64,000 nt of DNA from an uncultured bacterium (GTDB lineage Bacteria; Margulisbacteria; WOR-1; XYC2-FULL-46-14): positions 1,404 through 65,403 of the forward strand of contig CAYQVW010000009.1 of assembly GCA_964421245.1 (NCBI GenBank). Reading direction: 5' to 3'. The notes beneath the pieces are model-generated. The model did not search any database. It saw only the letters and a list, made by a program, of their open reading frames with translations, and was not told the DNA's origin. The number at the start of each line of letters is the position of its first letter. Within the stretch, counting starts at the first letter, position 1. This document shows, one piece after another, positions 20,291 through 54,244 of the stretch. Made by a program: the position numbers and the translations under genes.

Positions 20291-21049
20291 ATGAAGATCA
20301 GAATACTAGGCTGCCATGGATCGGAACTGCCAGGAATGCATCTTTCAAGCTATCTGATTGATGATTCGGTAATTTTAGATGCAGGAGGTCTTACCTCAAC
20401 CCTTAACTTTGAAGAACAAAAGAAGATAAAACACATTCTAATCAGCCATTCTCATCTTGACCATATTAAAGACATCGCTTTCTTAGCAGATAACCTACAA
20501 GAAGCCCCAGCTACCCCAATTGAAATTATAAGCTCAGAAGAAGTAATAAGAGCAATAAAGGAACACCTCTTCAACAATAGAATTTGGCCTGATTTTACAA
20601 AATTACCAAGCGAAAAAAAACCGATACTAAAATATAGACCGATTGAAGTTAATACACCATTTAAAATCGCAGGATTAGAGATAAATACAATCTACGCAAG
20701 CCACGTTGTGCCAACAGTAAGCTACTTTATATCAAAAAACAACTCAACTGTTCTTTTCACAGCAGATACCGGACCTACAAATAAAATCTGGGAAGAAGCA
20801 AACAAAATTAATAACCTAAAAGCAGTTTTTATCGACACTACCTTTCCAAATAAAATGCAGGGTTTGGCTGATAAGAGCAAACACCTAACACCCCAAAAAC
20901 TAAGAGAAGAACTTAAGAAACTAAAACAAAAAGCAACCATCTATAGCTACCATAACAAAGGCCGCTTCAAACAAGAGCTAGAACAAGAAATAAAAAAATG
21001 CTGCAAAGAAGTTATAACACTAAAAGAAGGAGAAATTCTTAATTTTTAA
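20291..21049 (+). CDS. Class II 3',5'-cyclic-nucleotide phosphodiesterase (metallo-beta-lactamase fold)
   Basis: KIRILGCHGSE...YLIDDSVILDAGG...ILISHSHLDHIKDIAFL contains the HxHLDH signature of class II cAMP phosphodiesterases (yeast PDE1/CpdP type). Confidence 0.65.
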   Translation: MKIRILGCHGSELPGMHLSSYLIDDSVILDAGGLTSTLNFEEQKKIKHILISHSHLDHIKDIAFLADNLQEAPATPIEIISSEEVIRAIKEHLFNNRIWPDFTKLPSEKKPILKYRPIEVNTPFKIAGLEINTIYASHVVPTVSYFISKNNSTVLFTADTGPTNKIWEEANKINNLKAVFIDTTFPNKMQGLADKSKHLTPQKLREELKKLKQKATIYSYHNKGRFKQELEQEIKKCCKEVITLKEGEILNF

Positions 21050-22964
21050 TCGGAATTAGGAAACTAAACTTGGTCCCCTTCCCCATTCGACTCTCAACCC
21101 AAATTTTTCCATCATGTAATTCGATCAGTCGTTTACAAATCGCAAGCCCAAGTCCGGTTCCACCATATTCACCAACGTGAACCTGTTTAAATTCTTTAAA
21201 TACATCCCCTAATTTCTCTTTTGCAATTCCAACTCCAGTGTCCTCAACCTCAAAAAGAACTGCATCATCTTTCCTTTTTACCCGTAGGGTAATCCCACCC
21301 TTTTTGGTAAATTTGGCCGAATTTCCAATTAAATTAATCAAAACCTGGTTTATTCTCTTCTGATCTCCCAATAAAACCGGCAAATTTCTACCTAGACTTA
21401 TTTTTAAATATAATCCTTTGCCATCCAGAAGAGACTTGGTCGAAAACTGAACAAACTCAATCACATCTTTTATGGCAAAGTCGACCTTATTAAGATCAAT
21501 CTTTCCGGCTTCAACGTTGGACAGATCTAGCACATCATTAATCAGACCTAGCAGATGGTTGCCGCTCTTTTGCATTTCGGCAATTGCCTGCTTTATCTTT
21601 TCAGAAATTTCACCATAGATTCCCGATTGAATTAGCTCTGCAAAACCCAACACTGCATTAAGCGGGGTTCTAAGCTCGTGCGACATATTGGCTAAGAATT
21701 CTGACTTGCGCTCGGTTGCATCCTGGAGCGCAACATTTAGTTTATTAAGCTCTTCGGTCTTATCTTTTACCTGGTGGGTTCGATCAGTTACCTTCTTCTC
21801 CAAGTTAGTATGCAATTCTTCAATAACATTCTTAGATTCTTCTAAGTTTTCATACAATTTGGCATTTTCTACCGCAACTGCAGCTTGAAAAGCCACATTT
21901 CTTAAAAAACCGATCTCATTTTGATTGAAAAAAAGCTGCTTTTGTTGACGCTCTCCCAAAAAAATTAACCCGGTGATTCCTTCCCTAAAAACCATCGGAA
22001 TAACAGATGAGGCATTTAGCTTCTTCATAGTAGCAAGAAGGGCTTTACTTGCCTCATTCAAAGATGGCTCTTCCCTAAACTCATCAATCGTAATTAAGCC
22101 ATCCTTTTTTTCTTTAACAATTTTAACCAACGGATCGTCCATGGCAATAGATACACTTTTATCATCATTTAAATATTTATTCTCATCCGGATTTGCAACC
22201 AGTATCTCAACCCCCAAAAGAGAGAGGGTTGTAACCAATTCGTTTTTGATAGTTACAATTATCTTACTAATATCCAAAAGGGTTGATATGTTATCGCTTA
22301 TTTCTGCTAAAAGCTTTTGAAAATTTTGCCTGGATCCAAAAAGAAAACGATCTATTAATGAACCAATAAAACCATCCAACATATCGTAACTAAACAGGAA
22401 AAACAATATTAAAAGTATAGAGAATAAAGGCAGACGATAAATTTCTACATTAACAAATTGAGAAATAAAGACAAAGAAATAATAGGAACCAACAACCAAG
22501 GCAACTATGATAGATGTTGTAATGGTTCGTCTTATCAAACTATCAACAGCAAAAGGCTTATAGTGCAAAATCATATAACTTGAGATCAATGATAAAAACG
22601 CTATGGCAGAAAAGAGCAAGAGCTTAGAAAAACCAAAATAAATAGTTAAAAAAGAGACAAATAAGACTAAAATAATACCAAAAAACAAAACCCGAGCCCT
22701 TTGTCTCTTGAGTGAACTTGTTGCTGATATCCTAACATAAAGAAACATTCCGGCTAAGGCAATCAATAAAAGCAGCGGAAAATACGACCAAAGCCTTGCC
22801 GTATCTGCCAATGGCAGAAAGCTAATCCAGGCCCCAAAAAATACACTTAACAAAAGAAAAACAAAAGTAGATAATAATTTTGGTCGTCTAACATAGGTAA
22901 AAAACCCTAATAAAACTATAATTGAAATAAGAAAATATTTTAACAAGCTAAATAAATTTGTCAT
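21039..22964 (-). CDS. Membrane sensor histidine kinase (multi-TM N-terminus, GAF-like domain, HisKA, HATPase_c)
   Basis: 6-7 predicted TM helices in first 230 aa. MSHELRTPLNAVLGFAELI H-box. C-terminal N/G1/G2 boxes (NLIGNSAKFT, DTGVGI, GGTGLGLAI). Confidence 0.85.
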   Translation of the reverse strand: MTNLFSLLKYFLISIIVLLGFFTYVRRPKLLSTFVFLLLSVFFGAWISFLPLADTARLWSYFPLLLLIALAGMFLYVRISATSSLKRQRARVLFFGIILVLFVSFLTIYFGFSKLLLFSAIAFLSLISSYMILHYKPFAVDSLIRRTITTSIIVALVVGSYYFFVFISQFVNVEIYRLPLFSILLILFFLFSYDMLDGFIGSLIDRFLFGSRQNFQKLLAEISDNISTLLDISKIIVTIKNELVTTLSLLGVEILVANPDENKYLNDDKSVSIAMDDPLVKIVKEKKDGLITIDEFREEPSLNEASKALLATMKKLNASSVIPMVFREGITGLIFLGERQQKQLFFNQNEIGFLRNVAFQAAVAVENAKLYENLEESKNVIEELHTNLEKKVTDRTHQVKDKTEELNKLNVALQDATERKSEFLANMSHELRTPLNAVLGFAELIQSGIYGEISEKIKQAIAEMQKSGNHLLGLINDVLDLSNVEAGKIDLNKVDFAIKDVIEFVQFSTKSLLDGKGLYLKISLGRNLPVLLGDQKRINQVLINLIGNSAKFTKKGGITLRVKRKDDAVLFEVEDTGVGIAKEKLGDVFKEFKQVHVGEYGGTGLGLAICKRLIELHDGKIWVESRMGKGTKFSFLIPIKN

Positions 22965-23329
22965 TATCCGATATATTTTTTAATCTTTTCAAGCAATATT
23001 TTAAAATTATACGGTTTGGTTAAATATTCGTTGCATCCAGCCTCAAGACCCTTATCTCGATCACCTGGCATTGCATAAGACGAGAGAACAACTACCGGAA
23101 TTTTCTTGGTGCTATCGCACTCCCGCATAGCCTTTAATACCTGGTAGCCATCCATTTCTGGTAATTGAATATCCATTAAAACCAGGTCTGGTTTTTCTTT
23201 TTTAGCCTGTTCTAACCCCTTTTTGCCATCGGTTGCCTCAAGAACCTCATAACCTTGACTGTTTAACAAATCAAAAATAATTTTGCGATTAGCCGAATTA
23301 TCTTCTATCGAGAGCACCCTTTTTCCCAT
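22964..23329 (-). CDS. Single-domain response regulator (CheY-like receiver)
   Basis: RVLSIEDNSANRKI...LMDIQLPEMDG...KIPVVVLSSYA...LTKP receiver motifs. Start overlaps upstream kinase stop. Confidence 0.85.
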   Translation of the reverse strand: MGKRVLSIEDNSANRKIIFDLLNSQGYEVLEATDGKKGLEQAKKEKPDLVLMDIQLPEMDGYQVLKAMRECDSTKKIPVVVLSSYAMPGDRDKGLEAGCNEYLTKPYNFKILLEKIKKYIG

Positions 23330-23334
23330 TTATA

Positions 23335-24423
23335 TCACCTCTTTCCCATTACTTTATACGTTGTAATGGGAGATTTAATACCCTTTACGGTAATTTCTCC
23401 AACTTTATCATAGCTAAAACTTTTTTCAGTTAAACTTTGCGTTCTATGCCCTACCAAGATATCCCCCGGTTGTGCTTCAGTACATAAGCGAAAAGCAACA
23501 TTAACCTGATTACCAATTACGGTATAATCCAGACGATCTTCTGGCCCAATATTTCCGACAGTAACATAACCGGTAACTATTCCAATTGCAACACGCAGAT
23601 CATGTCCGGCCACCTGCCAATTCTTTCTTAATTCTTCTACCTTTTTCTGCATTTCAACACCCATTTCAACTGCCCGTTTGGCATGGTCTTCTTGTGGAAT
23701 CGGATCACCAAAGAAAATCAATATTCCATCACCTAGAAACTTATCAAGTGTTCCACCATACTTAAAGGTAATTTTACTCATTTCAGAAAAATATTCATTT
23801 AATAGATTGATAACATCCTCCGGTTCAGAAACTTCGGAAATCCCGGTAAAGTTATCAATATCCGATACAAAGATAGTCAGAAGCTTACGACTGTTAGAAA
23901 GTTTGGCCCCACCATTTTTCATAATTGATTTAACTACCAGCGGAGAGAAATATCTTTCTAGTTGTTTTGATGCTTGGACCATTTCAACCTGATCTGCCAC
24001 CTTCTTCTCTAACCCCTGGTTAAGTTCTTGTAATTCTTTTTGAGCCATGCGTAGTTTGAGCATATTTCTAACGCGAGAGAGCAATTCTTGGTGTTCAAAC
24101 GGCTTAGGAAGATATTCGTCTGCGCCAAGCTCAAGTCCTTTTAGAATATCTTCTGTTCCAGAGCGGGCACTTACAATGATTATTGGTATAAGCTTGGTCT
24201 TATCATTTGCCTTAAGTTTTTCACAAACTTGGAAACCGTCCATCTTTGGCATCATTACATCTAGTAGGATCAGGTCAGGAAGGTTTAGTTCAACCATCTT
24301 TAGGGCTTCTTCACCGTCAAAGGCTTCGGCAACATCGTAGTTTTGAGTAGCCAATCGAGCCTTCATTATTTGTACATTCTGCGGATTATCGTCTACTACC
24401 AAAATCTTTGGTCGATCACTCAT
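23335..24423 (-). CDS. Response regulator receiver fused to class III adenylate/guanylate cyclase (CHD) domain
   Basis: Receiver: KILVVDDNPQNVQIM...LLDVMMPKMDG. Cyclase: LTIFVSDIDNFTGISE...GGTLDKFLGDGILIFFG...YTVIGNQVNVAFRL. Likely start is Met27 of the ORF (MSDRPK, GGAGAG RBS 7 nt upstream), hence 24423 rather than 24501. Confidence 0.8.
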   Translation of the reverse strand: MSDRPKILVVDDNPQNVQIMKARLATQNYDVAEAFDGEEALKMVELNLPDLILLDVMMPKMDGFQVCEKLKANDKTKLIPIIIVSARSGTEDILKGLELGADEYLPKPFEHQELLSRVRNMLKLRMAQKELQELNQGLEKKVADQVEMVQASKQLERYFSPLVVKSIMKNGGAKLSNSRKLLTIFVSDIDNFTGISEVSEPEDVINLLNEYFSEMSKITFKYGGTLDKFLGDGILIFFGDPIPQEDHAKRAVEMGVEMQKKVEELRKNWQVAGHDLRVAIGIVTGYVTVGNIGPEDRLDYTVIGNQVNVAFRLCTEAQPGDILVGHRTQSLTEKSFSYDKVGEITVKGIKSPITTYKVMGKR

Positions 24424-24513
24424 CTTCCCACTCTCCTTTTGGATTTTGAAATTTGAGCTTTGGATTTGTAAATATATGGTATTATATACCAAATAAACCA
24501 AAAGGAGAAGACA

Positions 24514-25239
24514 ATGCTTGGTGGATACGAAATGAAAGATGTCCCAAAATTTATTAAATATCAGTACTCCTTTGAACCTGAAGGAGGACCAAAAAAGGAA
24601 TTTACAGTAACGCTTGATGGAGCAACCCTAAATCGAATTGACGATCAGCAGAAAGATAACCCAGAGTGGACTAAGCTAGACTACATGCAGTGCAGCAACT
24701 GCCCTTACAATATAAAAGATAGACCGTTTTGCCCAATCGCATCCGGATTAGTTAATATTATTGAAACTTTTAAGGACACTGTCTCTCATCATGTTGGATT
24801 AATTACCGTAACTACTAATGAAAGAACCATTAGCAAGCGTACCGCCATGCAAGACGGGATAAGCTCTCTGATCGGCATATTTATGGTAACCTCTGGCTGT
24901 TCTGTTATGGATAAAATAAAACCGATGGTACGCTATCACCTCCCTTTTGCATCTATTAATGAGACAATCTATCGGGCAACCTCGATGTATCTGCTTGGGC
25001 AATATTTTGTTAAAAAAGAAGATAAAGCTCCTGATTGGGAATTAAAAGAACTTACAAAAACTTATAAAGAAATTGCAAAACTAAATCGCGATATTAGCCA
25101 AAGAATCCGCAGCGCCTCAAATGAGGATGCTAGTATTAATGCTCTGGTAATTCTCGATGTATTTGCCAAGATGCTCCCCTTCTCAATTGATGACACCCTA
25201 AAGAAACTCGAGTACCTTTTTGCCGATTATTTAGAATAA
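24514..25239 (+). CDS. Hypothetical Cys-containing protein co-transcribed with a cytoplasmic histidine kinase
   Basis: 241 aa, no TM. Cys cluster CSNCPYNIKDRPFCP plus additional Cys. Divergent from the RR-cyclase gene. Stop abuts start of next gene. Confidence 0.4.
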   Translation: MLGGYEMKDVPKFIKYQYSFEPEGGPKKEFTVTLDGATLNRIDDQQKDNPEWTKLDYMQCSNCPYNIKDRPFCPIASGLVNIIETFKDTVSHHVGLITVTTNERTISKRTAMQDGISSLIGIFMVTSGCSVMDKIKPMVRYHLPFASINETIYRATSMYLLGQYFVKKEDKAPDWELKELTKTYKEIAKLNRDISQRIRSASNEDASINALVILDVFAKMLPFSIDDTLKKLEYLFADYLE

Positions 25240-25240
25240 T

Positions 25241-26500
25241 ATGTTTTCTATATTCAACAAACAAAAAGATTTTCGTAAAATATTAACTAAAATATCCTCT
25301 CAACTTGCAACTGCAGTTGATGCAAACGATCTAGCAGACATGGTCTTTAAAGCTTTAGCAGAAGATTTCAAAATTAACAACACTGCCTTTTATTTAATTG
25401 AGAACTTTGGAAAAAAAGAGATTAAAGAAGAAAATGATTACAAAATAGTAAAAAATGCCCGCCTTGCAGAGCCAGCGGCGAGGCAGGACAAACTCTTGCA
25501 TCTCCCAGAAACACTGACCATCGACCACAGCCTGCTGCAGGAATTAGAAGACAAAAAAGAGACCATCAATAGACATAATAAAAACGAACTTGGAATTGAT
25601 ATCGCAATCCCCTGTTTTGAAGATAATAAACTAATTGCATTTTTACTAATAAAAAGAAAAGAAGCAAAATTTAAAAACGAAGAGATCGATCTATTTAATA
25701 TAATCGCAGCTCAAATCACACTGGTACTTGAGCGAATTAAGCCATACGAACAAATTCAAGCCGACCTTAAAAGGATGCTCAAAAGTGCGGAGGAAAAAGC
25801 TCACTTAGCCGGTTTTGCTACCTTAACCCAAGGATTAGCACATGAATTGCGCAACCCACTTGCAATCCTCCTAAGCCGAGCAGAACTAGTAAAAAAACAG
25901 ATCGATAATAAAGAATCTGTCTTAAAGTTTGCCGATATGACTATTCGCAATATCGAAAGACTATTAAAAATAATCGAAACTATGCTCCATTTTGGCGGCA
26001 ACAAAACAACAACCAAAGAAAAAGTAAACATAAATGAAACCCTAGAAGAGATATTGTTACTAACCGAAGGAGAATGTAAAAACAAAGAGATAAAAGTTCA
26101 AAAAGAATTAAATAGCAACCTTAAGATCAAGGGAGATGAAGCCCAATTCAACGAAATTCTATTAAATCTAGTTCTAAATGCAATTCAATCAATGGAAAAA
26201 TCAGAAATAAAAAATCTTACTATTAAAACTAGCAATAATAAAATCTCATCAAAGGAGGGATTAAAAGAAGCGGTTGAGATAATAATTCAAGATACCGGTT
26301 GTGGAATCAACAAAGAGAATCTGTCAAAAATATTTAATCCATTTTATACAACCAAGACAAACGGAGTTGGACTTGGGCTCTCAATAACCAAAAGAATGAT
26401 CGAAGACTATAACGGCTTACTCAATATAAAGAGTGAAAAAGAAACTGGCACCCAAGTTACAATAACTATACCTTTATCTCTCGGCGCAAAAAGTAATTAA
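25241..26500 (+). CDS. Cytoplasmic sensor histidine kinase (GAF-like N-terminus, HisKA, HATPase_c)
   Basis: LAHELRNPLAILLSRAEL H-box. NLVLNAIQS, QDTGCGI, GVGLGLSITKRMIE ATPase boxes. No TM helices. Confidence 0.8.
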   Translation: MFSIFNKQKDFRKILTKISSQLATAVDANDLADMVFKALAEDFKINNTAFYLIENFGKKEIKEENDYKIVKNARLAEPAARQDKLLHLPETLTIDHSLLQELEDKKETINRHNKNELGIDIAIPCFEDNKLIAFLLIKRKEAKFKNEEIDLFNIIAAQITLVLERIKPYEQIQADLKRMLKSAEEKAHLAGFATLTQGLAHELRNPLAILLSRAELVKKQIDNKESVLKFADMTIRNIERLLKIIETMLHFGGNKTTTKEKVNINETLEEILLLTEGECKNKEIKVQKELNSNLKIKGDEAQFNEILLNLVLNAIQSMEKSEIKNLTIKTSNNKISSKEGLKEAVEIIIQDTGCGINKENLSKIFNPFYTTKTNGVGLGLSITKRMIEDYNGLLNIKSEKETGTQVTITIPLSLGAKSN

Positions 26501-26795
26501 GAGTAGTTCTTATTGCAACGATTGCAGCAAGCATTCCAATCCCCTGCCAACTAGGAGTTAAAACAGTACCTAGAATATCTGCAGCGATAAATATTTCAAG
26601 TCCTAAAATCAGATTAACACCCAACCCCTGCCTAATGTGTACAACATTCTCTACCATCTTCTTTTGATCCACCTCAAACAAAACTCTTAAAAGATAGTTA
26701 AAAACTGCCCGCGCAACCCCATAGACAATTACACCTGTACCAATTGTATGAATAACCACAATAATTAAACGAAAAACTGAATATAATTCTGTCAT
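26466..26795 (-). CDS. DUF1622-family small membrane protein
   Basis: 109 aa, two TM segments, pattern typical of DUF1622 (YqhA-like). Confidence 0.5.
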   Translation of the reverse strand: MTELYSVFRLIIVVIHTIGTGVIVYGVARAVFNYLLRVLFEVDQKKMVENVVHIRQGLGVNLILGLEIFIAADILGTVLTPSWQGIGMLAAIVAIRTTLNYFLRREIKV

Positions 26796-26805
26796 AAATC
26801 CCCCT

Positions 26806-27387
26806 TCAGTTATCTAAAATTAAAACCGCGGCCGCTAAAACCGTGGTCCAAACACCACGTTGTCCAATGGCCGACTGCGTAATATTGGTGGTGCGAACTA
26901 TCTGATCAGAAAGCTTCCAGGTCTCTTGTCGCTCGTCATAATCAACACTTTCGTCATACTCAATACCAAGTGTTGTAGCTAGCATTTGAGCCGCCATATC
27001 TTCTGCGTAACTACCACACTCTTCATCTGTCTGCCCCCAAGAGTGGTGTTCACTTAAATAACCGTAACTATTTTTATCTGCCGGAAGCGCAAGTCCAACT
27101 GAAGATGAGATTAATCGATGAGATTCATCTGTTTGGTTTCGTGACATAACAATAAAGGTGATCTCACCTGGTTTAATTGTTTGCAGACCTTGTTCTCTTG
27201 AGATCATTTTAGCCCCAGGAGGGAAGATGCTTGAAACCTGAACATAATTTACCGCTTGAATACCAGCAGCCCTAAGTGCCATCTCAAAAGATACCAACTT
27301 TTCTCTGTGACGCCCTACCCCTTTTGTCAAAAAAAGTTTGTCTGGAACAAAAATATTTTTCTTTTCCGGCACAATTATATCAGCCAA
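26806..27387 (-). CDS. pdaD: Pyruvoyl-dependent arginine decarboxylase (PvlArgDC) proenzyme
   Basis: FLTKGVG...[30 protein letters not shown] matches archaeal/chlamydial PdaD/AaxB including the self-cleavage Ser-Ser site (VSS|I). Confidence 0.75.
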
Positions 27388-28132
27388 TTCCTGGTCTCCT
27401 TCTCTTTATATCTTTTTCATCCAAGGGACTAACCTCTACCTTTTTAGCAGAATAAATTGATTTGGTCAACAACGGTTTGAATAACTCTTCCACTTTCTCT
27501 ATCTCTTCTTTTGATAAAGCCTTTTCGGCACAATCGCGAGTAGGAGTTCCGATATAAACAATTCTAGGATTAATCTCTTTTGCTAATCGCGCAATATTTG
27601 CTGCATCATCAATGTTCTTTTGGGTTATCATAACCTGCAAAGCTAACCCTTGTTTAAAATTTTTGATCCCTTCAATTATTCTAGCAAGATCAACATCTCC
27701 TCCCGGTTGGTTCATCTTTTTCAAAACGGTATCAGATGCTGCATCCAATTTTGCAATCACCAGATCAATTGATTTTAAATCTTCTTGAACTTTTGGGTCA
27801 GACATGGTTGTAGAGTTAGTTAGCAATGCAATCGGTTTACTTGATCTCTTCTTAATCTCTTGTGCAACTTCTCCGATATTTAAAGCCAGAGTCGGCTCTC
27901 CGGTTCCGGAAAAGGTTATGTAGTCATATTCTAAATCTTTTGGCAGGGATTCGAATTCTTTTATTATTTCATCAGTCGGAATAAAAACCTTTCTCAAAAG
28001 AGTTTTGGCATTACCATTCCCAACCTGGCAATAGAGACAATCAAAGGAACAATATTTGTCTCCCGATATCAGATCAACCCCTAAAGATCGACCTAATCGC
28101 CATGATGCTACGGGACCATATATATATTTCAT
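27380..28132 (-). CDS. Radical SAM protein of unknown specificity
   Basis: [11 protein letters not shown] (CX3CX2C) preceded by [16 protein letters not shown]. Confidence 0.6.
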
Positions 28133-28905
28133 TAAACTCCTCTAAGAATAGTATTCTTTATGTGTTTTTTAGAAATCTCAACCATTTTTTCAAGTTGATC
28201 TCTTTCGTAAGGCTTAACTTTTACCAAAGACGGATCAAGGGTCTCTTTTGGAACAAATTGCTGCAGGGCAAATTTTTGTGCTCCAGCAATTGATTTTGCC
28301 AAATCCTCAATATCTTTTTCATTAAGTAACGTTGGAACAACTGTGGTTCTAAATTCATAAGGTAATCCTGATGTCATGACAATTCTAATACTTTTCATAA
28401 TATTGTTTATGTCTGTCTTTATTCCAGAAAGCTTATTATATCGCACGTCCAACGGTCCTTTAAGATCCATTGCAATATAGTCAACTAAATTATCTGCAAT
28501 TGCTCTCTGAATAACATCAGGAAATGCCCCATTTGTATCTAACTTGACCCTAAACCCTTGACCCTTGACCCTAATAATAAATTCAAATAGTCCATTCTTC
28601 TCGTGCAAACAAGGTTCTCCTCCGGTTAAACAGATGCCGTCAATAAAATCCTTATGTTCTTTCAGATAACTTTCAATTTTTTCAATAGAAATAAGATCAA
28701 ATTGCTTTGGATCTTCTATCAAACCAGCATTATGGCAAAATGGGCAGCGAAAATTACAGTTTGGCGCGTAGACAACTGCACAAACCTTACCATCCCAATC
28801 CAAAAACGATGTTTCTTGAAACCCTCTAATTTCCATAATTTCTCTCACCAAATATGGCCGTTCCAATACGAACCAGATTCGCCCCTTCTTCAATCGCGAC
28901 CTCAT
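28132..28905 (-). CDS. Radical SAM activase-like protein (NrdG/PflA-like fold)
   Basis: FLDWDGKVCAVVYAPNCNFRCPFCHN (CX3CX2C), with the preceding buried-substrate motif typical of glycyl-radical-enzyme/anaerobic RNR activases. Contains a (CTTGACC)n insertion. Confidence 0.55.
   Translation of the reverse strand: MRSRLKKGRIWFVLERPYLVREIMEIRGFQETSFLDWDGKVCAVVYAPNCNFRCPFCHNAGLIEDPKQFDLISIEKIESYLKEHKDFIDGICLTGGEPCLHEKNGLFEFIIRVKGQGFRVKLDTNGAFPDVIQRAIADNLVDYIAMDLKGPLDVRYNKLSGIKTDINNIMKSIRIVMTSGLPYEFRTTVVPTLLNEKDIEDLAKSIAGAQKFALQQFVPKETLDPSLVKVKPYERDQLEKMVEISKKHIKNTILRGV
28543..28575. repeat. (CTTGACC)n heptamer tandem array inside radical SAM gene
   Basis: cttgacc ctaaacc cttgacc cttgacc; encodes IRVKGQGFRVKLD on the gene strand. 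Confidence 0.8.
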
Positions 28906-29464
28906 AAGAAGAAGACATGCCCATTGATAATATTTCTAAATTTCCAATTTGATCAAACACTTTCTTTGTTTCGACAAAATATGGGCGGACAACCTCTGGA
29001 TTGTCAGAAAATGGCCCCATCGTCATCAAGCCCTTTATTTTAACATTTTTAAGTTCAGAAATTTGTTGGATTAACTGATCAACTTTTTCAGGATACACCC
29101 CGGCCTTCTGTTCTTCTCGCCCACTATTAACCTCAATCAAAATCGGCATTACTTTGCCAATCTTTGCACATTGCTTATCAATCTCTTTAGCTAGCTTCAT
29201 TGAATCAACGGTCTCAATCATATCGAATAACTGAACTGCTTTCTTAACCTTGTTGGTTTGTAAGTGTCCTATAAAATGAACCTTGACCCTTGGAACTTGC
29301 CCCTTGACCCTATCCCATTCCTGAACATAATTCTCCCCTACTATAGTAATACCAGCCTCAATGGCCTCTTTAATTTCTTCAGGAGTTCTGGTCTTTGCAG
29401 CAGCAACTAATTTTACATTGGGAGGTAACTCGGATAATATCTTTTTAACGTTTTCTTTGATCAT
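28826..29464 (-). CDS. yggS: YggS-family pyridoxal-phosphate homeostasis protein (alanine racemase N-terminal-like barrel)
   Basis: KLVAAAKTRTPEEIKEAIEAGITIVGENYVQE...HFIGHLQTNKVK...ILIEVNSG...GLMTMGP matches YggS/PLPHP. Confidence 0.8.
   Translation of the reverse strand: MIKENVKKILSELPPNVKLVAAAKTRTPEEIKEAIEAGITIVGENYVQEWDRVKGQVPRVKVHFIGHLQTNKVKKAVQLFDMIETVDSMKLAKEIDKQCAKIGKVMPILIEVNSGREEQKAGVYPEKVDQLIQQISELKNVKIKGLMTMGPFSDNPEVVRPYFVETKKVFDQIGNLEILSMGMSSSYEVAIEEGANLVRIGTAIFGERNYGN
29282..29309. repeat. (CTTGACC)n-like array inside yggS
   Basis: cttgacc cttggaa cttgccc cttgacc; encodes DRVKGQVPRVKVH. Confidence 0.75.
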
Positions 29465-30407
29465 TTGATATCATTTCTAATAAAATCAATGCAACTTGCT
29501 TGCTATAGCGTTTTGAGATATTAAGCGGATCTAAACCGGGCCAACCCCAACAAGCGGTGTGTATAACACCTTCTACTTCATAAGAAATATTATCCAATGA
29601 AGTCGGATGCATGGACTCGATTGGGGACTGGCCGGCAGGATTAGCAACTAAATCCGTGATAACCGCACCCTTTTTAAAAAGCTTGAGCATCTCTTTTTTA
29701 ATTAAAATCACTTTACCACGCTTATCCATTGGCCAATTAAGACCGTTAACCAAAATATCACACCCTGGAATATGTTTTTCCATCTCATAAATATCTTTTT
29801 TATTCAAAATAGTTACTTTTGCAAACTTTCTGGCGGCCGCCTTGATCGCCCCATAAGCAACCATGCCATACCCCATTACTTTGACAACACATTTTTCAGG
29901 ATTTCCCTTCTGCCTCGCCGGCTCGCCTCGCGAAGCGGGCAGGCGGGTCCATAATTCAAAACCCTTCTCCATTCCAAGCCGCCCTGTATCCTCTAATGCC
30001 TCAATTCTTCTTCTTCCCAAAGAATCCTTAATTTCTCCCATTGAAATACCATCAATCTTGTATCTATCAAGAAGTTTCTTTAGCTCCGGTTGTCCCGGCA
30101 AGTGAAGCATAGATAAAATAGAGCTTCCCGGCTTCATTAATTTTAATTCTTCTTCATTCGGCTCTTTTAGCCTAACAACAAGATCGCAAGAATAGACCTC
30201 TTTACGAGAAACAACAGATGCTTTGGCCTTCTTATACTCTTCATCGCTTACACCAATTCCCAAACCAGCCCCTTCCTCAACAAAAACATTGGATATTCCT
30301 TTTATATCTTCTGGAAGAAGAATTACACGTTTTTCCTGAGGACGATTTTCAGAAGCGACACCGATTTTCATTTTAGACATCCATATGAGTGAATTTTTTT
30401 TCTTCAA
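29445..30407 (-). CDS. AlaDH/PNT-family NAD(P)-dependent dehydrogenase (alanine dehydrogenase / carboxyethyl-ornithine synthase-like), ~310 aa
   Basis: N-terminal KIGVASENRPQEKRVILLPEDIKGISNVFVEEGAGLGIG matches the AlaDH/PNT N-domain. VKVMGYGMVAYGAIKAA is the Rossmann motif. Carries a 46-nt GC-rich in-frame insert (LPASRGEPARQKG). True start may be the internal MKIGV. Confidence 0.55.
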   Translation of the reverse strand: MKKKNSLIWMSKMKIGVASENRPQEKRVILLPEDIKGISNVFVEEGAGLGIGVSDEEYKKAKASVVSRKEVYSCDLVVRLKEPNEEELKLMKPGSSILSMLHLPGQPELKKLLDRYKIDGISMGEIKDSLGRRRIEALEDTGRLGMEKGFELWTRLPASRGEPARQKGNPEKCVVKVMGYGMVAYGAIKAAARKFAKVTILNKKDIYEMEKHIPGCDILVNGLNWPMDKRGKVILIKKEMLKLFKKGAVITDLVANPAGQSPIESMHPTSLDNISYEVEGVIHTACWGWPGLDPLNISKRYSKQVALILLEMISNDQRKR

Positions 30408-31419
30408 AATTGCGGTAAATATACTTCTTTCCTTTTTTCTTAACTAAATAATCTGGGGAAAGAGGTATTTTTCCACCACCATTTTCAATATCTAAAATAA
30501 GTTTTGGGACAGCTAATCCAGATGTATGGCCTATAACCTTTCTCATTATTTTCAAAGCCTGATCAATTGAAACCCTAAAGTGATGAGACCCTTCAACAGC
30601 ATCTGGAATATAAATATAATATGGACGAACTAATATTTTGAGTAATTTCTCATTAAGCTCAATTAAAGTCTTTGGGTTATCATTTACCCCTTTTAGCAAA
30701 ACAGACTGATTCCCCATTAAAATCCCATGATCTGTTAGCAGTTTACAGGCTTTCGTCGCTTCTTTGGTTATTTCTCGAGGATGGTTAAAATGGGTCAAAA
30801 AATAGAGTGGTTGATATTTTTTGAGCATCTTACAAAGCTTGGGCGTTATTCTTTGTGGAAGAGTACAAGGTGTTCTCGAATCAATTCTAACAATTTCTAC
30901 ATGCTTTATCTTTTTTAACTCTTTAAGATAACGCTCTATTTTACTATCATCCAGAAGCAATGGATCTCCTCCAGAAATAATAACATCCCTGACTTTCTTT
31001 TTTGCTTTGATATACTTTATTGCTCTATTAAAATCTTTATCTGACAAAGTGGCATACTTCTTCCCAACTTTTCTCTTTCTAGTACAAAAGCGGCAGTACA
31101 TTGCACATTTATTTGAGACCAAAAGCAAAACACGATCCGGATAGCGATGAACAACCCCAAAAATCGGGGTATGTTTCTCTTCATTCAGTGGGTCTAAATT
31201 ACCATCTCTATTAATAATCTCTTCTGAATCGGGAATACACTGTTTCCAAATCGGATCATTTTTTTTCTTAATTAAACTCAAATAATAACGATTAACTAAA
31301 AGCGGAAAACGATGAGCAACCTCATCAATATCCCCATTTCCAATCTTTTTAGGATCAATAATTGCGTTTTTAAATAGTTTTTTCCAGTCAGACACCAATT
31401 CCTCCAATAATCTGTTCAA
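30373..31419 (-). CDS. kamA: KamA-family radical SAM aminomutase (lysine 2,3-aminomutase / EpmB-like)
   Basis: CAMYCRFCTRKRKVG is the KamA-family CX3CX2C cluster. 348 aa is in the EpmB/KamA size range. Confidence 0.75.
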   Translation of the reverse strand: MNRLLEELVSDWKKLFKNAIIDPKKIGNGDIDEVAHRFPLLVNRYYLSLIKKKNDPIWKQCIPDSEEIINRDGNLDPLNEEKHTPIFGVVHRYPDRVLLLVSNKCAMYCRFCTRKRKVGKKYATLSDKDFNRAIKYIKAKKKVRDVIISGGDPLLLDDSKIERYLKELKKIKHVEIVRIDSRTPCTLPQRITPKLCKMLKKYQPLYFLTHFNHPREITKEATKACKLLTDHGILMGNQSVLLKGVNDNPKTLIELNEKLLKILVRPYYIYIPDAVEGSHHFRVSIDQALKIMRKVIGHTSGLAVPKLILDIENGGGKIPLSPDYLVKKKGKKYIYRNFEEKKFTHMDV

Positions 31420-32206
31420 GCTCGCTCACATTTACAAATCTAGCATAACGCTTTAAAAGATTAAGGGTAAATTTAATTTTGAACCGACTTATTACTGAAG
31501 CAAATTCAAAAGTGTGAGCAAGTACCGATAGAATAATCATACCTTGCTTGGAGTCTTTCTTCAAGCGCCTAATCTTCTTCCAAATACTGTATATAGACTC
31601 TTTCTCAATATAAAACCCAAGCGGAATTTCGATAACCTTACTATTACCTTCCCTTCTATGATCCTGATAGTCTAGTTGATAATAATTAGTGGGAGCATTT
31701 CTCCAATCAGAGACCAAATTGTTCCCATGAAACAAATGGCGTCCAGGATTACACGAAAAATCAAACTTAATTTTATTTTCTTCAAGAATTGGAATAGTCT
31801 TTGGAGAAAAAGCCAGATACCCACCACGATAAGAAAACGGATTTAATCCTGCCTCCCTCAAGCCCTTTGTAAAACTAGAAATCGCTCGCTTCATCTTTCC
31901 AGAATCATTAAAATAATATGCCCTGCGCGGATCATCTTCGTGGCAGTGAACCCCAACATTCCCATTGTTATTTTCGATTTTCTTCCAACACTTAATAAAC
32001 TCCGGTCTTAAGAAAAAGTCGCGAGCTCGTGGAGAAGTATGAACAAAATGAATGAATTTTCCATCTATAACTGATGAGGCAAGCTCAATCTCTTTATCAA
32101 TCAGAGGAAGCAACGTCGATAGATTAGGCCTTCTCTCCTCTTCAGACAGGTGGGGATTGAAATATTCATCCCAATCCCCATCAATTGTAAAAACTAAATT
32201 GATCAA
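31388..32206 (-). CDS. Hypothetical protein, first gene of the operon
   Basis: 272 aa, no clear motifs (FTIDGDWDEY, VGVHCHEDDP). Overlaps kamA start by 32 nt. Confidence 0.35.
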   Translation of the reverse strand: MINLVFTIDGDWDEYFNPHLSEEERRPNLSTLLPLIDKEIELASSVIDGKFIHFVHTSPRARDFFLRPEFIKCWKKIENNNGNVGVHCHEDDPRRAYYFNDSGKMKRAISSFTKGLREAGLNPFSYRGGYLAFSPKTIPILEENKIKFDFSCNPGRHLFHGNNLVSDWRNAPTNYYQLDYQDHRREGNSKVIEIPLGFYIEKESIYSIWKKIRRLKKDSKQGMIILSVLAHTFEFASVISRFKIKFTLNLLKRYARFVNVSELEQIIGGIGV

Positions 32207-32211
32207 TAAAC

Positions 32212-33498
32212 CTAATTACCAGAATAGAGATTCAAACTAACTTCTGTTCCAGTTAGATCTTGAGTAGTAGTTCCATCGGCCACGGTAATCGTTGTTGGAG
32301 AAGCTACTCCACCCGCTCCATATGCACCATAATAATCACCGGAAGAGAGCACACCATTGCCGTCAACATCAAGGAGAAAGACGGCAATAAAGCTTCCAGA
32401 AGGAAGGCCCGAACTATTTATCGATAAACTAGAAAATGATCCGGCATCAGCTTGATTAACTCCAAGCGTTAACATCGGGGGACCACCAGCCGAATAAGAT
32501 GCCAGACTTGAATAAGCATCGGCAATCAAAGGAGTACTACTGCTTAAGGTAATAGGAGTAGATACTGAAGCGGTAAAGTCAACTGATCCACCTCCCTTAG
32601 GTGTCTGTGCTCCTCCATCACCACCTTCAAGAGCAGATATTGTAAAAGCTGGAGATAGTGATGTTGTTACCGTCTCTTGAGCTACTACTGTTACAGGAGA
32701 AATAGTTCCATCCCAAGGCTCCGCTCCGCCAGCTGTATAACCCTTATCACCTATCTGTGGAGGGCTATGTCCCGACTGTTCTGTAATAAACTCGATTGCC
32801 ATAAAATACCATGTGCCCGGTTTAAGCTGCATAGTACCAGTAGCGGTACCATCTCCATTATTGGTCATTGTAGAAACAAAAGAAGGGCCAGCTTGCTGTT
32901 GAAATGAAGCAAACGCACCTAGCTCCACCTTTTTTCCAGCAGTAACCCCAGAAGCAATATTAGCAGTAATGGTACCTATTTTGGAAGTATCAACAACCAC
33001 ATTCTCACCGGTGAAGTGAAAAAGAGGAGGATTATCCGGAAAATAAGTAGCAAAGGTTGTTCCTGAAATATCTGATGCTGACATATGTGCATTAAAAAGC
33101 AATTTTCCACCAGAATAAATAATCGGTTTAATATTCTCAACAATCTCACTAAAATCTTCATTCCCACCACTTTTCGCCTTCAATATTGGCAATATCTCCC
33201 TCTCGTTGGTCCCTTGAACAAATTTGATCGAGGAAACTGTAAAACCAATCTGGCTGTAGCTTCCTGCTGGTGGAGGAGTAATTGTAATTGAAGACCCAGA
33301 AGTACTCTTGGCGGCTGAACTCAAGATGTTTACTACATCCGAGGAAGTGGTCAATGAAATCCAAGATGAATTCTCATCCGTCCTTATTTTAAAATCACTA
33401 AAGGTAACCTGCAGCTCAAGGTCACTCGGAAGGGTTGCTGCGAAAGAAGAAAACGCGAACAGAGATAATAAGATTAATACTAGAAAAAATCTTTTCAT
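32212..33498 (-). CDS. Secreted Ser/Thr/Gly-rich protein with C-terminal Ca-binding-like DxDxNG motif
   Basis: Signal peptide MKRFFLVLILLSLFAFSSFAA with GGAGG RBS 7 nt upstream of this Met; ORF-track start at 33528 is probably too long. DVDGNGVLSSGD near C-terminus. Confidence 0.5.
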   Translation of the reverse strand: MKRFFLVLILLSLFAFSSFAATLPSDLELQVTFSDFKIRTDENSSWISLTTSSDVVNILSSAAKSTSGSSITITPPPAGSYSQIGFTVSSIKFVQGTNEREILPILKAKSGGNEDFSEIVENIKPIIYSGGKLLFNAHMSASDISGTTFATYFPDNPPLFHFTGENVVVDTSKIGTITANIASGVTAGKKVELGAFASFQQQAGPSFVSTMTNNGDGTATGTMQLKPGTWYFMAIEFITEQSGHSPPQIGDKGYTAGGAEPWDGTISPVTVVAQETVTTSLSPAFTISALEGGDGGAQTPKGGGSVDFTASVSTPITLSSSTPLIADAYSSLASYSAGGPPMLTLGVNQADAGSFSSLSINSSGLPSGSFIAVFLLDVDGNGVLSSGDYYGAYGAGGVASPTTITVADGTTTQDLTGTEVSLNLYSGN

Positions 33499-33511
33499 TT
33501 CTATGCCTCCC

Positions 33512-33664
33512 CTATTCTTCAATAGCATATGGGCTAATGTTTGTTATACCCATAGAATTGCTATCACTCGACGAAGTAGTATTCTGCTTTCCGCAACCAG
33601 AAAAAACAAGGAAACCGACTATCAACGCAATAACCCCGAACAGAAGCACCCATTTCAACTTCAT
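33512..33664 (-). CDS. Small lipoprotein (50 aa) not in ORF track
   Basis: MKLKWVLLFGVIALIVGFLVFSGCGKQNTTSSSDSNSMGITNISPYAIEE. Lipobox VFSGC. Strong RBS AGGAGGG 7 nt upstream of ATG. Confidence 0.5.
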   Translation of the reverse strand: MKLKWVLLFGVIALIVGFLVFSGCGKQNTTSSSDSNSMGITNISPYAIEE

Positions 33665-33739
33665 AAATAATCCCTCCTACTTAAGATTTGATCAATTTTA
33701 GGCTCAAAATCAAATATTGTCAATATGTTATAATTTTAT

Positions 33740-45529: not shown

Positions 45530-45848
45530 CAGTAAATACTATTTGTGGCTTAAAAGATTGGGCCTCTTTTGGCGTCATTTGAGCATAGGTTAAAATAATA
45601 ACACGATTTCCGATTTCGCCAAGCTTTGCTGCCGGACCACGCAACCCAATCTCCCCTTCTTTTCCCTCAATAACATATGTCTCAAAACGATTGCCGTTTT
45701 CAAAATTAAGCACCTGGACCTTTTCATAAACCAAAATACCTGAAGCCTTTAGTAACTTTGGACAGATGGCAATACTGCCAATATACTCGTATTCTGTTGA
45801 GGTAATATAAGCCATATGGATTTTTGACTTCAATAAAGTGAGTAGCAT
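45507..45848 (-). CDS. panD: Aspartate 1-decarboxylase proenzyme
   Basis: MLLTLLKSKIHMAYITSTEYEYIGSIAI... matches PanD including the Gly-Ser self-processing site. Confidence 0.8.
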   Translation of the reverse strand: MLLTLLKSKIHMAYITSTEYEYIGSIAICPKLLKASGILVYEKVQVLNFENGNRFETYVIEGKEGEIGLRGPAAKLGEIGNRVIILTYAQMTPKEAQSFKPQIVFTDEKNCVK

Positions 45849-45867
45849 ATTATTAATTATAACACGA

Positions 45868-48139: not shown

Positions 48140-48145
48140 ACTTAT

Positions 48146-51313: not shown

Positions 51314-51323
51314 AACTTAATAC

Positions 51324-52145
<822 letters not shown>

Positions 52146-54231: not shown

Positions 54232-54244
54232 TACTCTTTACTAA

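Follow-up and report, generated by a model that had tools for sequence, protein, structure and literature searches.

The 64,000-nucleotide stretch of DNA analyzed here (the window) carries a same-strand gene run that is very probably a mosaic of independently inherited blocks, co-transcribed by chance in a compact genome. The functional core of the run is a self-contained cassette of three genes, which encode a predicted amide hydrolase of CE4 fold, a lysine 2,3-aminomutase of KamA type, and a short NAD(P) enzyme of the AlaDH family. This trio is an undescribed enzyme cassette that is probably lysine centered, and the genes for YggS, both other radical SAM proteins, PvlArgDC, and DUF1622 are no part of its chemistry. 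The best explanation of the whole, to which we assign a probability of roughly 35%, is a mosaic run in which the trio acts as an N-acyl-(β-)lysine funnel. The features of the run are as follows:

33695 to 33723, minus strand: sigma-70-like promoter match (TTGACA-17-TAAAAT, 11/12), the best of the region, a consensus match only
32212 to 33528, minus strand: secreted-type 438-aa protein, first gene of the run, carrying a signal peptide at its N terminus and matching no family
31388 to 32206, minus strand: block 1 gene 1, a 272-aa cytoplasmic protein of predicted CE4/NodB type (predicted structure and profile alignment)
30373 to 31419, minus strand: block 1 gene 2, KamA-family radical SAM/PLP aminomutase (TIGR00238, 296 bits against a cutoff of 199)
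29445 to 30407, minus strand: block 1 gene 3, short AlaDH/PNT-family NAD(P)-binding protein (Pfam AlaDh_PNT_N and AlaDh_PNT_C)
28826 to 29464, minus strand: block 2, YggS-family PLP-binding protein (TIGR00044, 181.6 against 106.25)
28132 to 28905, minus strand: NrdG-type glycyl-radical activase-like radical SAM protein (TIGR02495, 187.1 against 131.15)
27380 to 28132, minus strand: block 2, 250-aa radical SAM protein, matched by Pfam Radical_SAM only, COG0731 type and uncharacterized
26806 to 27387, minus strand: PvlArgDC, agmatine forming (PF01862, 193.6 bits; TIGR00286, 123.5 against 106.95)
26466 to 26795, minus strand: DUF1622 small membrane protein, last gene of the run (PF07784, 86 bits)

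The first-pass annotation described a nine-gene co-directional operon at positions 26466 to 32206. The genes, their strand, and their overlaps are as described, and profile matches confirm the families it named (PvlArgDC, the radical SAM proteins, YggS, KamA, AlaDH/PNT, and DUF1622), but the interval holds eight genes, and the ninth lies just beyond it, at positions 32212 to 33528. Because neighboring genes overlap or stand 5 to 10 bp apart, no convincing internal terminator is present within the run, and a promoter-like site (33723 to 33695) lies upstream of the first gene, a single transcript is plausible, with positions 26466 to 33528 probably under one promoter. Promoter-like sites are not more numerous than in shuffled sequence (29 versus 22.4 ± 4.8). 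At its other end, the DUF1622 gene converges on a histidine kinase gene (positions 25241 to 26500, plus strand) and overlaps its 3' end. Another same-strand overlapping run, at positions 43686 to 56616, contains the unrelated genes for ThiD2/ThiE, an M23 peptidase, PdxJ, TyrRS, AroB, PanB, CdaA, LysA, CimA, and IspH. In this genome, it is normal for functionally unrelated genes to be strung together in such runs, and the arrangement by itself is therefore little evidence of shared function.

Gene neighborhoods were compared in 59 genomic loci carrying the AlaDH-like gene and 80 metagenomic loci carrying the 250-aa radical SAM gene. Across the 59 loci, the 10 kb around the AlaDH-like gene never include YggS, the NrdG-like gene, PvlArgDC, DUF1622, or the secreted-protein gene, and a homolog of the 250-aa radical SAM gene is near it in a single locus, at about 7 kb. 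The trio is likewise found in none of the 80 loci, and in the Omnitrophota MAG JAHIPS01, blocks 1 and 2 lie on separate contigs (L021 and L071, respectively). The trio is kept across phyla, but the full run was seen again only in L060, an 82%-identical relative, and even this copy is devoid of the DUF1622 and 438-aa secreted-protein genes. An opposite-strand methyltransferase gene takes the place of the latter, which has no homolog in the 59 related loci and lies outside any conserved block; DUF1622 is also missing from every other locus compared. A WOR-1 genome has the order YggS-rSAM-PvlArgDC-DUF6901-RR-cyclase, as in the window, but with an ABC transporter in front.

Block 2 (YggS and the 250-aa radical SAM protein) has a history of its own. 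YggS adjoins a homolog of the 250-aa radical SAM gene in 12 of 47 long metagenome loci and also in L065, L066, and L071, and in other phyla no copy of it lies close to the trio. The 250-aa protein has the N-terminal motif YGPVxSWRLGxSLG and 1,999 homologs in varying gene contexts; JGI labels some of them "wyosine synthetase (radical SAM superfamily)." Subfamily assignment of the two radical SAM proteins succeeded for the activase-like one (TIGR02495), whereas no NCBIfam model scores the 250-aa protein above 43 bits. The NrdG-like gene, for which gene callers place the start at 28836 (234 aa), is missing from block 2 as it occurs in WOR-1, and only 3 of the 80 loci have it at 5 kb or less from the 250-aa radical SAM gene; no nrdD is present in the window. 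PvlArgDC contains the Ser-Ser self-cleavage site VSSI and simply makes agmatine. The only cases in which it stands beside the 250-aa radical SAM gene are L060 and the WOR-1 genome, whose PvlArgDC is 82% identical.

The 272-aa protein has no sequence match in Pfam, NCBIfam, or the PDB. Its AF2 model (pLDDT, 92; pTM, 0.92) predicts a CE4/NodB-type (β/α)7 deacetylase fold, and Foldseek retrieved ArnD (8t0j; E = 6e-8) together with 3rxz, HP0310, and PuuE (TM, 0.58 to 0.65). In hhalign, the protein matches the Polysacc_deac_1 region of P0510 (95%), where VGVHCHED falls on CE4 motif 2 and YRGGY on motif 3. Invariant residues are D9, D11, H53, H56, H87, H89, R127, D167, W168, and H231. The fold and the Asp/His/Arg motifs in the expected order are shared with the CE4/NodB superfamily (ArnD, PuuE allantoinase, and HP0310 PgdA), but the protein lacks a PF01522 match, has D-G-D as motif 1 and H-x-H-E-D as motif 2, and is cytoplasmic, encoded beside amino acid enzymes rather than glycan genes. 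This sequence orphan is a probable metal-dependent amide hydrolase.

The KamA homolog has an ORF of 348 aa, or 340 aa from the gene-caller start at 31395, and is a short form without the C-terminal tail of the clostridial lysine 2,3-aminomutase. All subfamily models score below their cutoffs: AblA, 410 (<525); glutamate 2,3-aminomutase, 401 (<650); arginine 2,3-aminomutase, 337 (<600); and EpmB, 264 (<369). Aligned with 2A5H (E = 1.5e-96), it retains CxxxCxxC, Arg134, Asp293, Asp330, and Lys337, and all the lysine-binding residues of the solved lysine 2,3-aminomutase are kept. The residues are identical to those of the C. subterminale enzyme, the type that opens clostridial lysine fermentation (KamA, KamDE, Kdd, Kce, and Kal). 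However, the run and its conserved neighbors lack the B12-dependent 5,6-aminomutase (KamDE), Kdd, Kce, and Kal.

Within the conserved cassette, the hub is the AlaDH-like gene, with a likely start at 30380 or 30371 (311 or 308 aa). Its product is about 60 to 65% identical across phyla and about 25 to 29% identical to annotated AlaDH; its closest PDB relatives are AlaDH (2eez and 1pjb), followed by PNT dI, whereas saccharopine dehydrogenase structures gave no match at an E value of ≤1e-5. The two-domain fold is shared with L-alanine dehydrogenase (EC 1.4.1.1), and R27, K81, and H102 correspond to AlaDH Arg15, Lys75, and His96 and are near invariant, with the triad present in nearly all members. 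Nevertheless, the protein is about 60 residues shorter and scores far under the equivalog cutoff (TIGR00518, 91.8 bits against 391.85). The active-site loop is deleted, and the NAD adenine-ribose Asp is lost, with ILN-K-K where the NAD type has ILD. In the AlaDH loop LVPMSEVAG, Ala and a neighboring invariant Glu take the place of Pro-Met, where Met133 of AlaDH flanks the active site (PMC4691113). This replacement and the loop deletion should leave a more open pocket in which a cation may fit. The position of AlaDH Asp270 is occupied by N256, which is Asn in every member; since Asp270 is essential in the M. tuberculosis enzyme (PMC4691113), plain AlaDH-type deamination is not assured. The family has three extra invariant arginines (R22, R79, and R133), and the window copy has a unique 13-aa insertion at about residues 158 to 170.

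The trio is conserved over Omnitrophota, Margulisiibacteriota, Saganbacteria, and Elusimicrobiota. In 32 of the 42 informative loci, the CE4-like gene immediately precedes the AlaDH-like gene, with KamA between them in 20 and without KamA in 12, and KamA alone is upstream in 2. The flanking genes vary from locus to locus; no transporter, regulator, or dap gene is conserved beside the cassette, and no acyltransferase occurs within it. Many lineages have a second AlaDH-like paralog, and on contigs binned as Asgard (Promethearchaeota), the AlaDH-like gene is paired with ATP-grasp ligases. In one locus, an NtrC-like gene, GDH, and two AlaDH-like genes are consecutive. As the first-pass annotation had supposed, the gene combination is without description in the searched literature.

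On balance, the cassette seems to act on lysine or β-lysine. The mechanism that we tentatively prefer, with each chemical step drawn from family resemblance, is that the trio salvages or degrades N-acylated (β-)lysine. The CE4-like enzyme would remove the N-acyl group, for example, from N-ε-acetyl-β-lysine or N-acetyl-lysine; the aminomutase would reversibly interconvert β-lysine and L-lysine; and the AlaDH-like enzyme, through a 2-oxo-acid/α-amino-acid site of the AlaDH type, would subject the basic amino acid to pyridine nucleotide-dependent C-N redox chemistry. The likeness to AblA/AblB, which produces the methanogen osmolyte N-ε-acetyl-β-lysine, lies in the KamA-type lysine 2,3-aminomutase (AblA is the top-scoring subfamily model); N-acyl-β-lysine is also plausible as a substrate or product of the trio. 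However, the aminomutase is under the AblA cutoff, and in place of a GNAT acetyltransferase the trio has an AlaDH-family protein and a protein with the fold of an amide hydrolase; if the two systems are related at all, the trio would run in the reverse direction. The lack of an acyltransferase in the cassette argues for a hydrolase pathway rather than AblB-type acetylation. The funnel would also account for the AlaDH-like gene as the invariant hub and for the cassette forms H-K-A, H-A, and K-A (hydrolase, KamA, and AlaDH-like). Against it, a catabolic or uptake operon without a conserved transporter or regulator is unusual, the ILN-K-K motif and the cross-phylum identity look more like those of a biosynthetic housekeeping enzyme, and the cassette has no later steps for the 2-oxo product. 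The second AlaDH-like paralogs and the Asgard ATP-grasp pairing are left unexplained.

A possible but doubtful alternative, within the same mosaic, is a biosynthetic trio in which the aminomutase makes β-lysine and the AlaDH-like protein is an NADPH-dependent opine synthase of the N5-(carboxyethyl)ornithine synthase (CEOS) type, an enzyme of similar size class. Pyruvate or another 2-oxo acid would be condensed with the ω-amino group of (β-)lysine, the CE4-like enzyme would free the amine from an N-acetylated precursor, and the zwitterionic N-(carboxyethyl)-(β-)lysine would serve as an osmolyte or fermentative redox sink. The length of about 308 to 311 aa (about 370 for AlaDH), the NADP(H) use suggested by ILN-K-K, the high conservation, and the lack of nearby transporters or regulators fit this scheme. 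The protein shares its superfamily with CEOS and other AlaDH-family opine and saccharopine enzymes, reductive condensation with pyruvate would suit the retained 2-oxo-acid-binding triad with Asp270 replaced, and R22, R79, and R133 could hold a second carboxylate. Yet this scheme has an ad hoc role for the hydrolase, the partner that is most strongly conserved, and H-A without KamA and K-A without the hydrolase would yield different products. A lysine biosynthesis variant, in which the AlaDH-like enzyme reductively aminates N-acyl-2-amino-6-oxopimelate, the CE4-like enzyme deacylates N-acyl-LL-DAP, and KamA is a lysine-consuming add-on, shares the housekeeping-like conservation, NADP-like motif, and transporter absence; the extra arginines suit dicarboxylates, LysA in the window indicates that the DAP route is in use, and the locus with GDH and two AlaDH-like genes is in keeping with it. 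No dap gene is kept beside the cassette, though, and this entirely inferential idea is quite improbable.

It is unlikely that the AlaDH-like protein is a noncatalytic NAD(P)-sensing subunit regulating its neighbor, be it the CE4-like enzyme, the aminomutase, or, elsewhere, an ATP-grasp ligase. The precedent is ADLP, an AlaDH-like NAD+-sensing pseudoenzyme of Thermus that regulates the adjacent CoA transferase (bioRxiv 10.1101/2025.10.31.685773); the AlaDH-like protein is likewise encoded beside an unrelated enzyme, with which it may act. The invariant Asn at Asp270, the replaced adenine-ribose Asp, and the varied enzyme partners of the hub agree with such a role, and the very high conservation could mirror protein-protein surfaces. 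However, ADLP has lost the catalytic lysine (bioRxiv 10.1101/2025.10.31.685773), whereas the AlaDH-like family retains it, and the triad in nearly all members argues for ligand binding or catalysis. The first-pass proposal of a single pathway that comprises all eight or nine genes and joins agmatine and β-lysine formation to a reductive condensation yielding a modified polyamine is now very unlikely. Co-transcription in the window and the order kept in the 82%-identical relative favor it, and PLP-binding YggS and the extra radical SAM proteins might in theory assist a PLP/SAM enzyme. But co-occurrence stops at that closest relative, the blocks are apart in other genomes (0 of 59 and 0 of 80 loci join them), and this genome routinely strings unrelated genes together, so that synteny largely refutes the proposal; the polyamine link finds no support. 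The least probable reading is that the KamA homolog is of the EpmB type, supplying β-lysine for EF-P modification beside unrelated neighbors. The short form of 348 aa is EpmB-like in size, but EpmB is the worst-scoring subfamily model, and the homolog is not EpmB-like; neither epmA nor efp is in the window, and a conserved gene order ties the gene closely to the CE4-like and AlaDH-like genes.

The minus strand carries nine co-directional ORFs between 26466 and 33528, eight of which fall in the interval that the first-pass annotation had described as a nine-gene operon.

Genes of the minus-strand run, with model scores in bits against the cut-off of each model
26466-26795, minus strand, DUF1622 protein (Pfam match)
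26806-27387, minus strand, pyruvoyl-dependent arginine decarboxylase, PvlArgDC (TIGR00286, 123.5 against 106.95; VSSI processing site)
27380-28132, minus strand, 250-aa radical SAM protein (all NCBIfam models at or below 43)
28132-28905, minus strand, NrdG-type activase-like radical SAM protein (TIGR02495, 187.1 against 131.15)
28826-29464, minus strand, YggS (TIGR00044, 181.6 against 106.25)
29445-30407, minus strand, AlaDH/PNT-family protein (both Pfam domains; alanine dehydrogenase equivalog TIGR00518, 91.8 against 391.85)
30373-31419, minus strand, KamA-family aminomutase (TIGR00238, 296.1 against 199.2)
31388-32206, minus strand, 272-aa hypothetical protein (no family hits)
32212-33528, minus strand, ninth gene, 438-aa protein with a signal peptide (no family matches)

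The Pfam and NCBIfam models confirmed the families named earlier, and one of the two radical SAM proteins scores above the cut-off for the NrdG type, with no nrdD partner found in the 64-kb window; the 250-aa protein was assigned to a subfamily by none of them. PvlArgDC also scores 190.6 with PRK12398, slightly below the cut-off of 207, and its VSSI sequence is the Ser-Ser self-processing site. The ORF ends overlap or stand 5 to 10 bp apart, the run shows no convincing terminator inside it, and the most promoter-like site of the minus strand precedes the ninth gene; the run is plausibly one transcript, as had been proposed. The window is densely packed, with a GC content of 38%, and elsewhere on the minus strand (43686-56616) unrelated housekeeping genes follow one another in a long run, their ends overlapping, namely, those for a ThiD2/ThiE fusion, an M23 peptidase, a sugar nucleotidyltransferase, PdxJ, TyrRS, AroB, a tRNA, PanB, CdaA, LysA, citramalate synthase, and IspH. 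Genes packed in one direction with their ends overlapping are therefore what this genome shows by default, which is no evidence for a pathway, and conservation across relatives is the test that matters. At the other end of the run, the DUF1622 gene and a plus-strand gene for a GAF-histidine kinase (25241-26500) converge with a 3' overlap of 35 bp (26466-26500), and thus a terminator hairpin has no room between them.

Hundreds of homologs of the AlaDH-like protein were found at about 58 to 65% identity, all from metagenome-assembled or single-cell genomes and, without exception, labeled either hypothetical or "alanine dehydrogenase." With each GTDB species represented by one genome, a pattern scan gave 59 AlaDH-like loci from Omnitrophota, Margulisiibacteriota, Saganbacteria, Elusimicrobiota, Auribacterota, some "Planctomycetia" and "Clostridia" MAGs, and four Promethearchaeota-binned contigs, and these were compared by tblastn with all window proteins and by all-against-all clustering of the locus ORFs. 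Only three gene families recur, encoding the AlaDH-like protein, the 272-aa hypothetical protein, and the KamA homolog. In 42 informative loci, the sequence upstream of the AlaDH-like gene spans 2.3 kb or more. In 32 of them, the 272-aa gene, in the same orientation, directly precedes the AlaDH-like gene or is separated from it by the KamA gene alone (12 and 20 loci, respectively); another 2 contain the KamA gene without the 272-aa gene, and both genes are missing from the remaining 8. No further gene family is found in more than 9 of the 59 loci, and these others reflect lineage-level synteny; an APC permease, a Na/Pi transporter, PhoU, a helicase, and a nitroreductase, none of them adjacent to the cassette, were rejected as partners on these grounds. 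YggS, the NrdG-like protein, PvlArgDC, DUF1622, and the secreted protein are not encoded within 10 kb of the AlaDH-like gene in any of the 59 loci. Gene order is conserved across phyla for the trio; the order of the run from the 272-aa gene through PvlArgDC is repeated only in a relative with 82% identity (L060), which itself is without DUF1622 and the secreted protein. The cassette has no conserved transporter or regulator beside it in the 59 loci, and it is preceded by no riboswitch or RNA leader in the window and seven related loci, where tRNAs were the only RNAs detected. Apparent fusions of the CE4-like (272-aa) and AlaDH-like proteins in Elusimicrobiales proved to be long-ORF artifacts of high GC content, the two being separate genes with abutting stop and start codons. 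The trio, whose conservation is observed directly, is spread over several candidate phyla and has no cultured carriers; no description of it was found in the literature searched, in agreement with the earlier remark that the gene combination was not a recognized pathway. It provides a testable context for two protein families that are widespread and unannotated in candidate phyla.

The 250-aa radical SAM protein belongs to a large uncharacterized COG0731-type family, the context of which was taken from 80 metagenomic loci, 47 of them at least 5 kb long. YggS adjoins it, in either order, in 12 of these 47 (L087, L090, L093, L101, L102, L109, L110, L123, L126, L127, L141, and L149), as well as in the window (27380-29464), a WOR-1 genome (L065), and the Omnitrophota MAG JAHIPS01 (L071), which suggests that this protein and the PLP-homeostasis protein YggS have a functional link of their own. 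Of the 80 loci, 3 have an NrdG-like gene no more than 5 kb away, 1 has PvlArgDC beside the radical SAM gene, and none has the trio; other family members lie among Fe-S/NifB-like genes or glycosyltransferases. The single PvlArgDC case, a 1.67-Mb WOR-1 contig, has the same order as the window (YggS, radical SAM protein, PvlArgDC, DUF6901, response-regulator cyclase, and histidine kinase), with 59 to 82% identity between the proteins, and an ABC transporter precedes in place of the trio. JAHIPS01 has the trio on one contig (L021) and the radical SAM-YggS pair on another (L071). Two separately conserved blocks thus meet in the run, together with lineage-specific genes, a mosaic reading to which we assign a probability of roughly 0.85. 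Overlapping co-directional genes in compact genomes do not in themselves make a pathway, and here synteny across phyla divided an "operon" into unrelated blocks.

A signaling block adjoins PvlArgDC in the window (20291-26500), L065 (7364-11132), and L060 (13522-19633), comprising DUF6901, a response-regulator/adenylate-guanylate cyclase, a single-domain response regulator, histidine kinases, and a class-II cNMP phosphodiesterase-like metallo-β-lactamase, and is syntenic with the WOR-1 genome at 68 to 70% identity. In L071 (603-6429), genes of the deoxyhypusine-synthase and arginase/agmatinase families are located 2.5 kb upstream of the radical SAM-YggS pair, a possible polyamine context for this block, distinct from the trio.

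The 272-aa protein has no Pfam, NCBIfam, or PDB hit, whether searched as a single sequence or as a profile, and none of 34 family members matches PF01522 at an E value of 1 or below. A profile scan of 1.8 billion representatives recovered a small core family and unannotated remote relatives, with one weak hit among the latter overlapping a Pfam Polysacc_deac_1 domain. The confident structure model (pLDDT, 92) predicts a (β/α)7 fold, and its best structural matches are CE4/NodB proteins, namely, ArnD, mycobacterial (3rxz) and Helicobacter (HP0310) deacetylases, PuuE allantoinase, and SpPgdA (E values of 6e-8 to 1e-4; TM scores up to 0.65). In addition, hhalign (95%) against a PF01522 region pairs CE4 motif 2 with VGVHCHED and motif 3 with YRGGY. 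The motifs TIDGDW, VHCHED, YRGGY, SDWR, and LAH, variants of the canonical CE4 series TFDD, H(S/T)xxH, RxPY, DxxDW, and LxH, are invariant in the family, including D9/D11, H53/H56, H87/H89, R127, D167-W168, and H231. We read the protein as a cytoplasmic, putative metal-dependent amide hydrolase.

KamA-type aminomutases are known from three settings, i.e., lysine fermentation, the acetyl-β-lysine osmolyte pathway, and EF-P modification. Their conserved association with an orphan hydrolase of CE4 fold and a divergent member of the AlaDH family would be a fourth and would indicate new lysine/β-lysine chemistry; all three trio proteins belong to known superfamilies, and the trio would therefore be a variant of KamA-based lysine metabolism rather than a new kind of system. 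The aminomutase aligns to lysine 2,3-aminomutase of C. subterminale (2A5H; E = 1.5e-96) and retains the cluster motif CxxxCxxC (CAMYCRFC), the PLP lysine (Lys337 equivalent), and the equivalents of Arg134, Asp293, and Asp330, which in the solved enzyme bind the α-carboxylate (Arg134) and the ε-ammonium group (Asp293 and Asp330). It lacks the C-terminal tail, and its scores lie under the cut-offs of all the subfamily equivalogs, with AblA (TIGR03820) the best (409.7 against 525.4) and EpmB (TIGR03821) the lowest (263.9 against 369.3). An AblB GNAT acetyltransferase is encoded neither in the run nor among the conserved neighbors. Glutamate 2,3-aminomutase (TIGR04368) was rejected by its score (400.7 against 650) and by the retention of both aspartates, which are replaced by Lys and Asn in the characterized enzyme. 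The simplest reading of the protein is as a lysine 2,3-aminomutase that forms its own subfamily, neither EpmB nor a glutamate aminomutase. Routine lysine fermentation, already discounted in the first-pass annotation, is not indicated, as kamDE, kdd, kce, and kal are absent from the run and from the conserved neighbors in the 59 loci.

The nearest structures to the AlaDH-like protein are AlaDH and then transhydrogenase domain I, and it shares about 25 to 29% identity with annotated AlaDH, the equivalog of which it falls far short of. PntA was rejected (73.9 against 383, N-terminal domain alone, with pntB absent nearby), as were saccharopine dehydrogenase (LYS1), with no SDH chain at an E value of 1e-5 or below by sequence or profile and none in the top 50 fold matches, and an analogy with PylD/PylB (radical SAM mutase, dehydrogenase, and ATP-grasp), PylD being absent from the top fold matches. 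R27, K81, and H102, corresponding to Arg15, Lys75, and His96 of AlaDH (M. tuberculosis numbering), are near-invariant, and the Asp270 position is invariably Asn (Asn256); mutation of Asp270 abolishes M. tuberculosis AlaDH activity (cited in PMC4691113). One AlaDH active-site loop is missing, and in the LVPMSEVAG loop, in which Met133 flanks the AlaDH active site (PMC4691113), Pro-Met is replaced by Ala and an adjacent invariant Glu. At the ribose-binding Asp of NAD-specific enzymes, the protein has Asn-Lys-Lys, an NADP-like motif. The family comprises two subfamilies, both present in tandem in many loci of Elusimicrobiota, Saganbacteria, and Margulisiibacteriota. Asgard-binned and distant homologs neighbor an ATP-grasp ligase, Ddl-like or RimK/LysX-like; a link to the AAA-type lysine pathway through the latter is unlikely for this organism because it has LysA.

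The trio is probably lysine centered. The AlaDH-like gene is the hub of cassettes containing all three genes, the 272-aa and AlaDH-like genes, or the KamA and AlaDH-like genes, and we therefore tentatively favor a sequence of deacylation, isomerization, and oxidation, all the chemistry of which is inferred. The CE4-like hydrolase would strip the N-acyl group from N-acyl-lysine or N-acyl-β-lysine, the aminomutase would interconvert β-lysine and lysine, and the AlaDH-like enzyme would carry out an NAD(P)-dependent C-N redox reaction on the basic amino acid. The absence of an acyltransferase from the cassette counts against AblAB-type synthesis. A catabolic reading is weakened by the NADP-like motif, by the housekeeping-like conservation, and by the absence of a transporter or regulator conserved beside the cassette; these features fit biosynthesis, either by a CEOS-like opine synthase, which is the first-pass idea cut to three genes, or in a variant acyl-DAP branch. 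Opine-type biosynthesis is somewhat unlikely and only slightly less favored than the deacylation sequence, and the acyl-DAP branch is a long shot. No CEOS model in NCBIfam matched, and a search for CEOS reference proteins in the PDB and in plasmid records found none (the plasmid relatives being AlaDH and PntA only).

By analogy with ADLP, an AlaDH-like NAD+-sensing pseudoenzyme of Thermus, the AlaDH-like protein might be a noncatalytic NAD(P)-sensing regulator, a role that the Asp270-to-Asn change allows; however, the catalytic lysine is replaced in ADLP (bioRxiv 10.1101/2025.10.31.685773) and kept in most of the 61 aligned members here (about 10 have R, S, T, or N in this column, 4 of them with a Lys two residues earlier), and we consider such a regulator rather improbable. 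It is unlikely, taken as a whole, that the trio encodes a hitherto unrecognized lysine pathway in uncultivated anaerobes (Omnitrophota, Margulisiibacteriota, Saganbacteria, and Elusimicrobiota) in which a new AlaDH-family enzyme would act directly on β-lysine, either producing opine-type N-(carboxyethyl)-β-lysine as an osmolyte or redox sink or opening a lysine fermentation independent of B12, with a step other than deacetylation catalyzed by the CE4-fold protein. Only this boldest reading retains a BKACE/Kce-like role based on the HxH motif, rejected otherwise since the fold is CE4 and not an eight-stranded TIM barrel. A single nine-gene pathway, the earlier hybrid of polyamine and β-lysine chemistry, agrees with the plausible single transcript but is very improbable, as the run splits into independently conserved blocks and neither the 59 AlaDH-like nor the 80 radical SAM loci link arginine decarboxylation to β-lysine. 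The supply of β-lysine for EF-P by an EpmB-type enzyme, a known KamA setting, is hardly credible, given that EpmB has the lowest subfamily score and that neither epmA nor efp is in the 64-kb window.

Several further features of these loci were observed. In Margulisiibacteriota and Saganbacteria (L010, L030, L031, L046, L050, and L051), downstream of the cassette stands a gene of the LOG/TIGR00730 family, whose 340-aa product has a long extension at its N terminus, and IspE is often encoded upstream. An Elusimicrobiota MAG (L020, 2450-9913) encodes a histidine kinase, an NtrC-type sigma-54 activator, and glutamate dehydrogenase, followed by two AlaDH-like copies, which hints at a nitrogen-regulated amino-acid dehydrogenase function. 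In the Promethearchaeota (Asgard)-binned loci (L003, L004, L006, and L022), the AlaDH-like gene is 62 to 65% identical to bacterial ones and adjoins a Ddl-like ATP-grasp ligase, with a LAGLIDADG-like ORF in L003 and L004 and a divergent second AlaDH-like copy on the opposite strand in L006 and L022, reflecting either recent transfer or mis-binning. The inter-domain region of the AlaDH-like protein of the window carries an insertion of 13 residues, LPASRGEPARQKG (residues ~158-170), modeled with low confidence and missing from the other aligned homologs, including the 82% relative; one homolog, P0007, has a shorter insertion of 7 residues at this site. Elsewhere in the window (5774-11853), the gene for a 1616-aa protein with a right-handed β-helix domain precedes one for a 410-aa protein weakly similar to the PorV/PorQ family, and the pair may represent a large surface protein with its outer-membrane partner.
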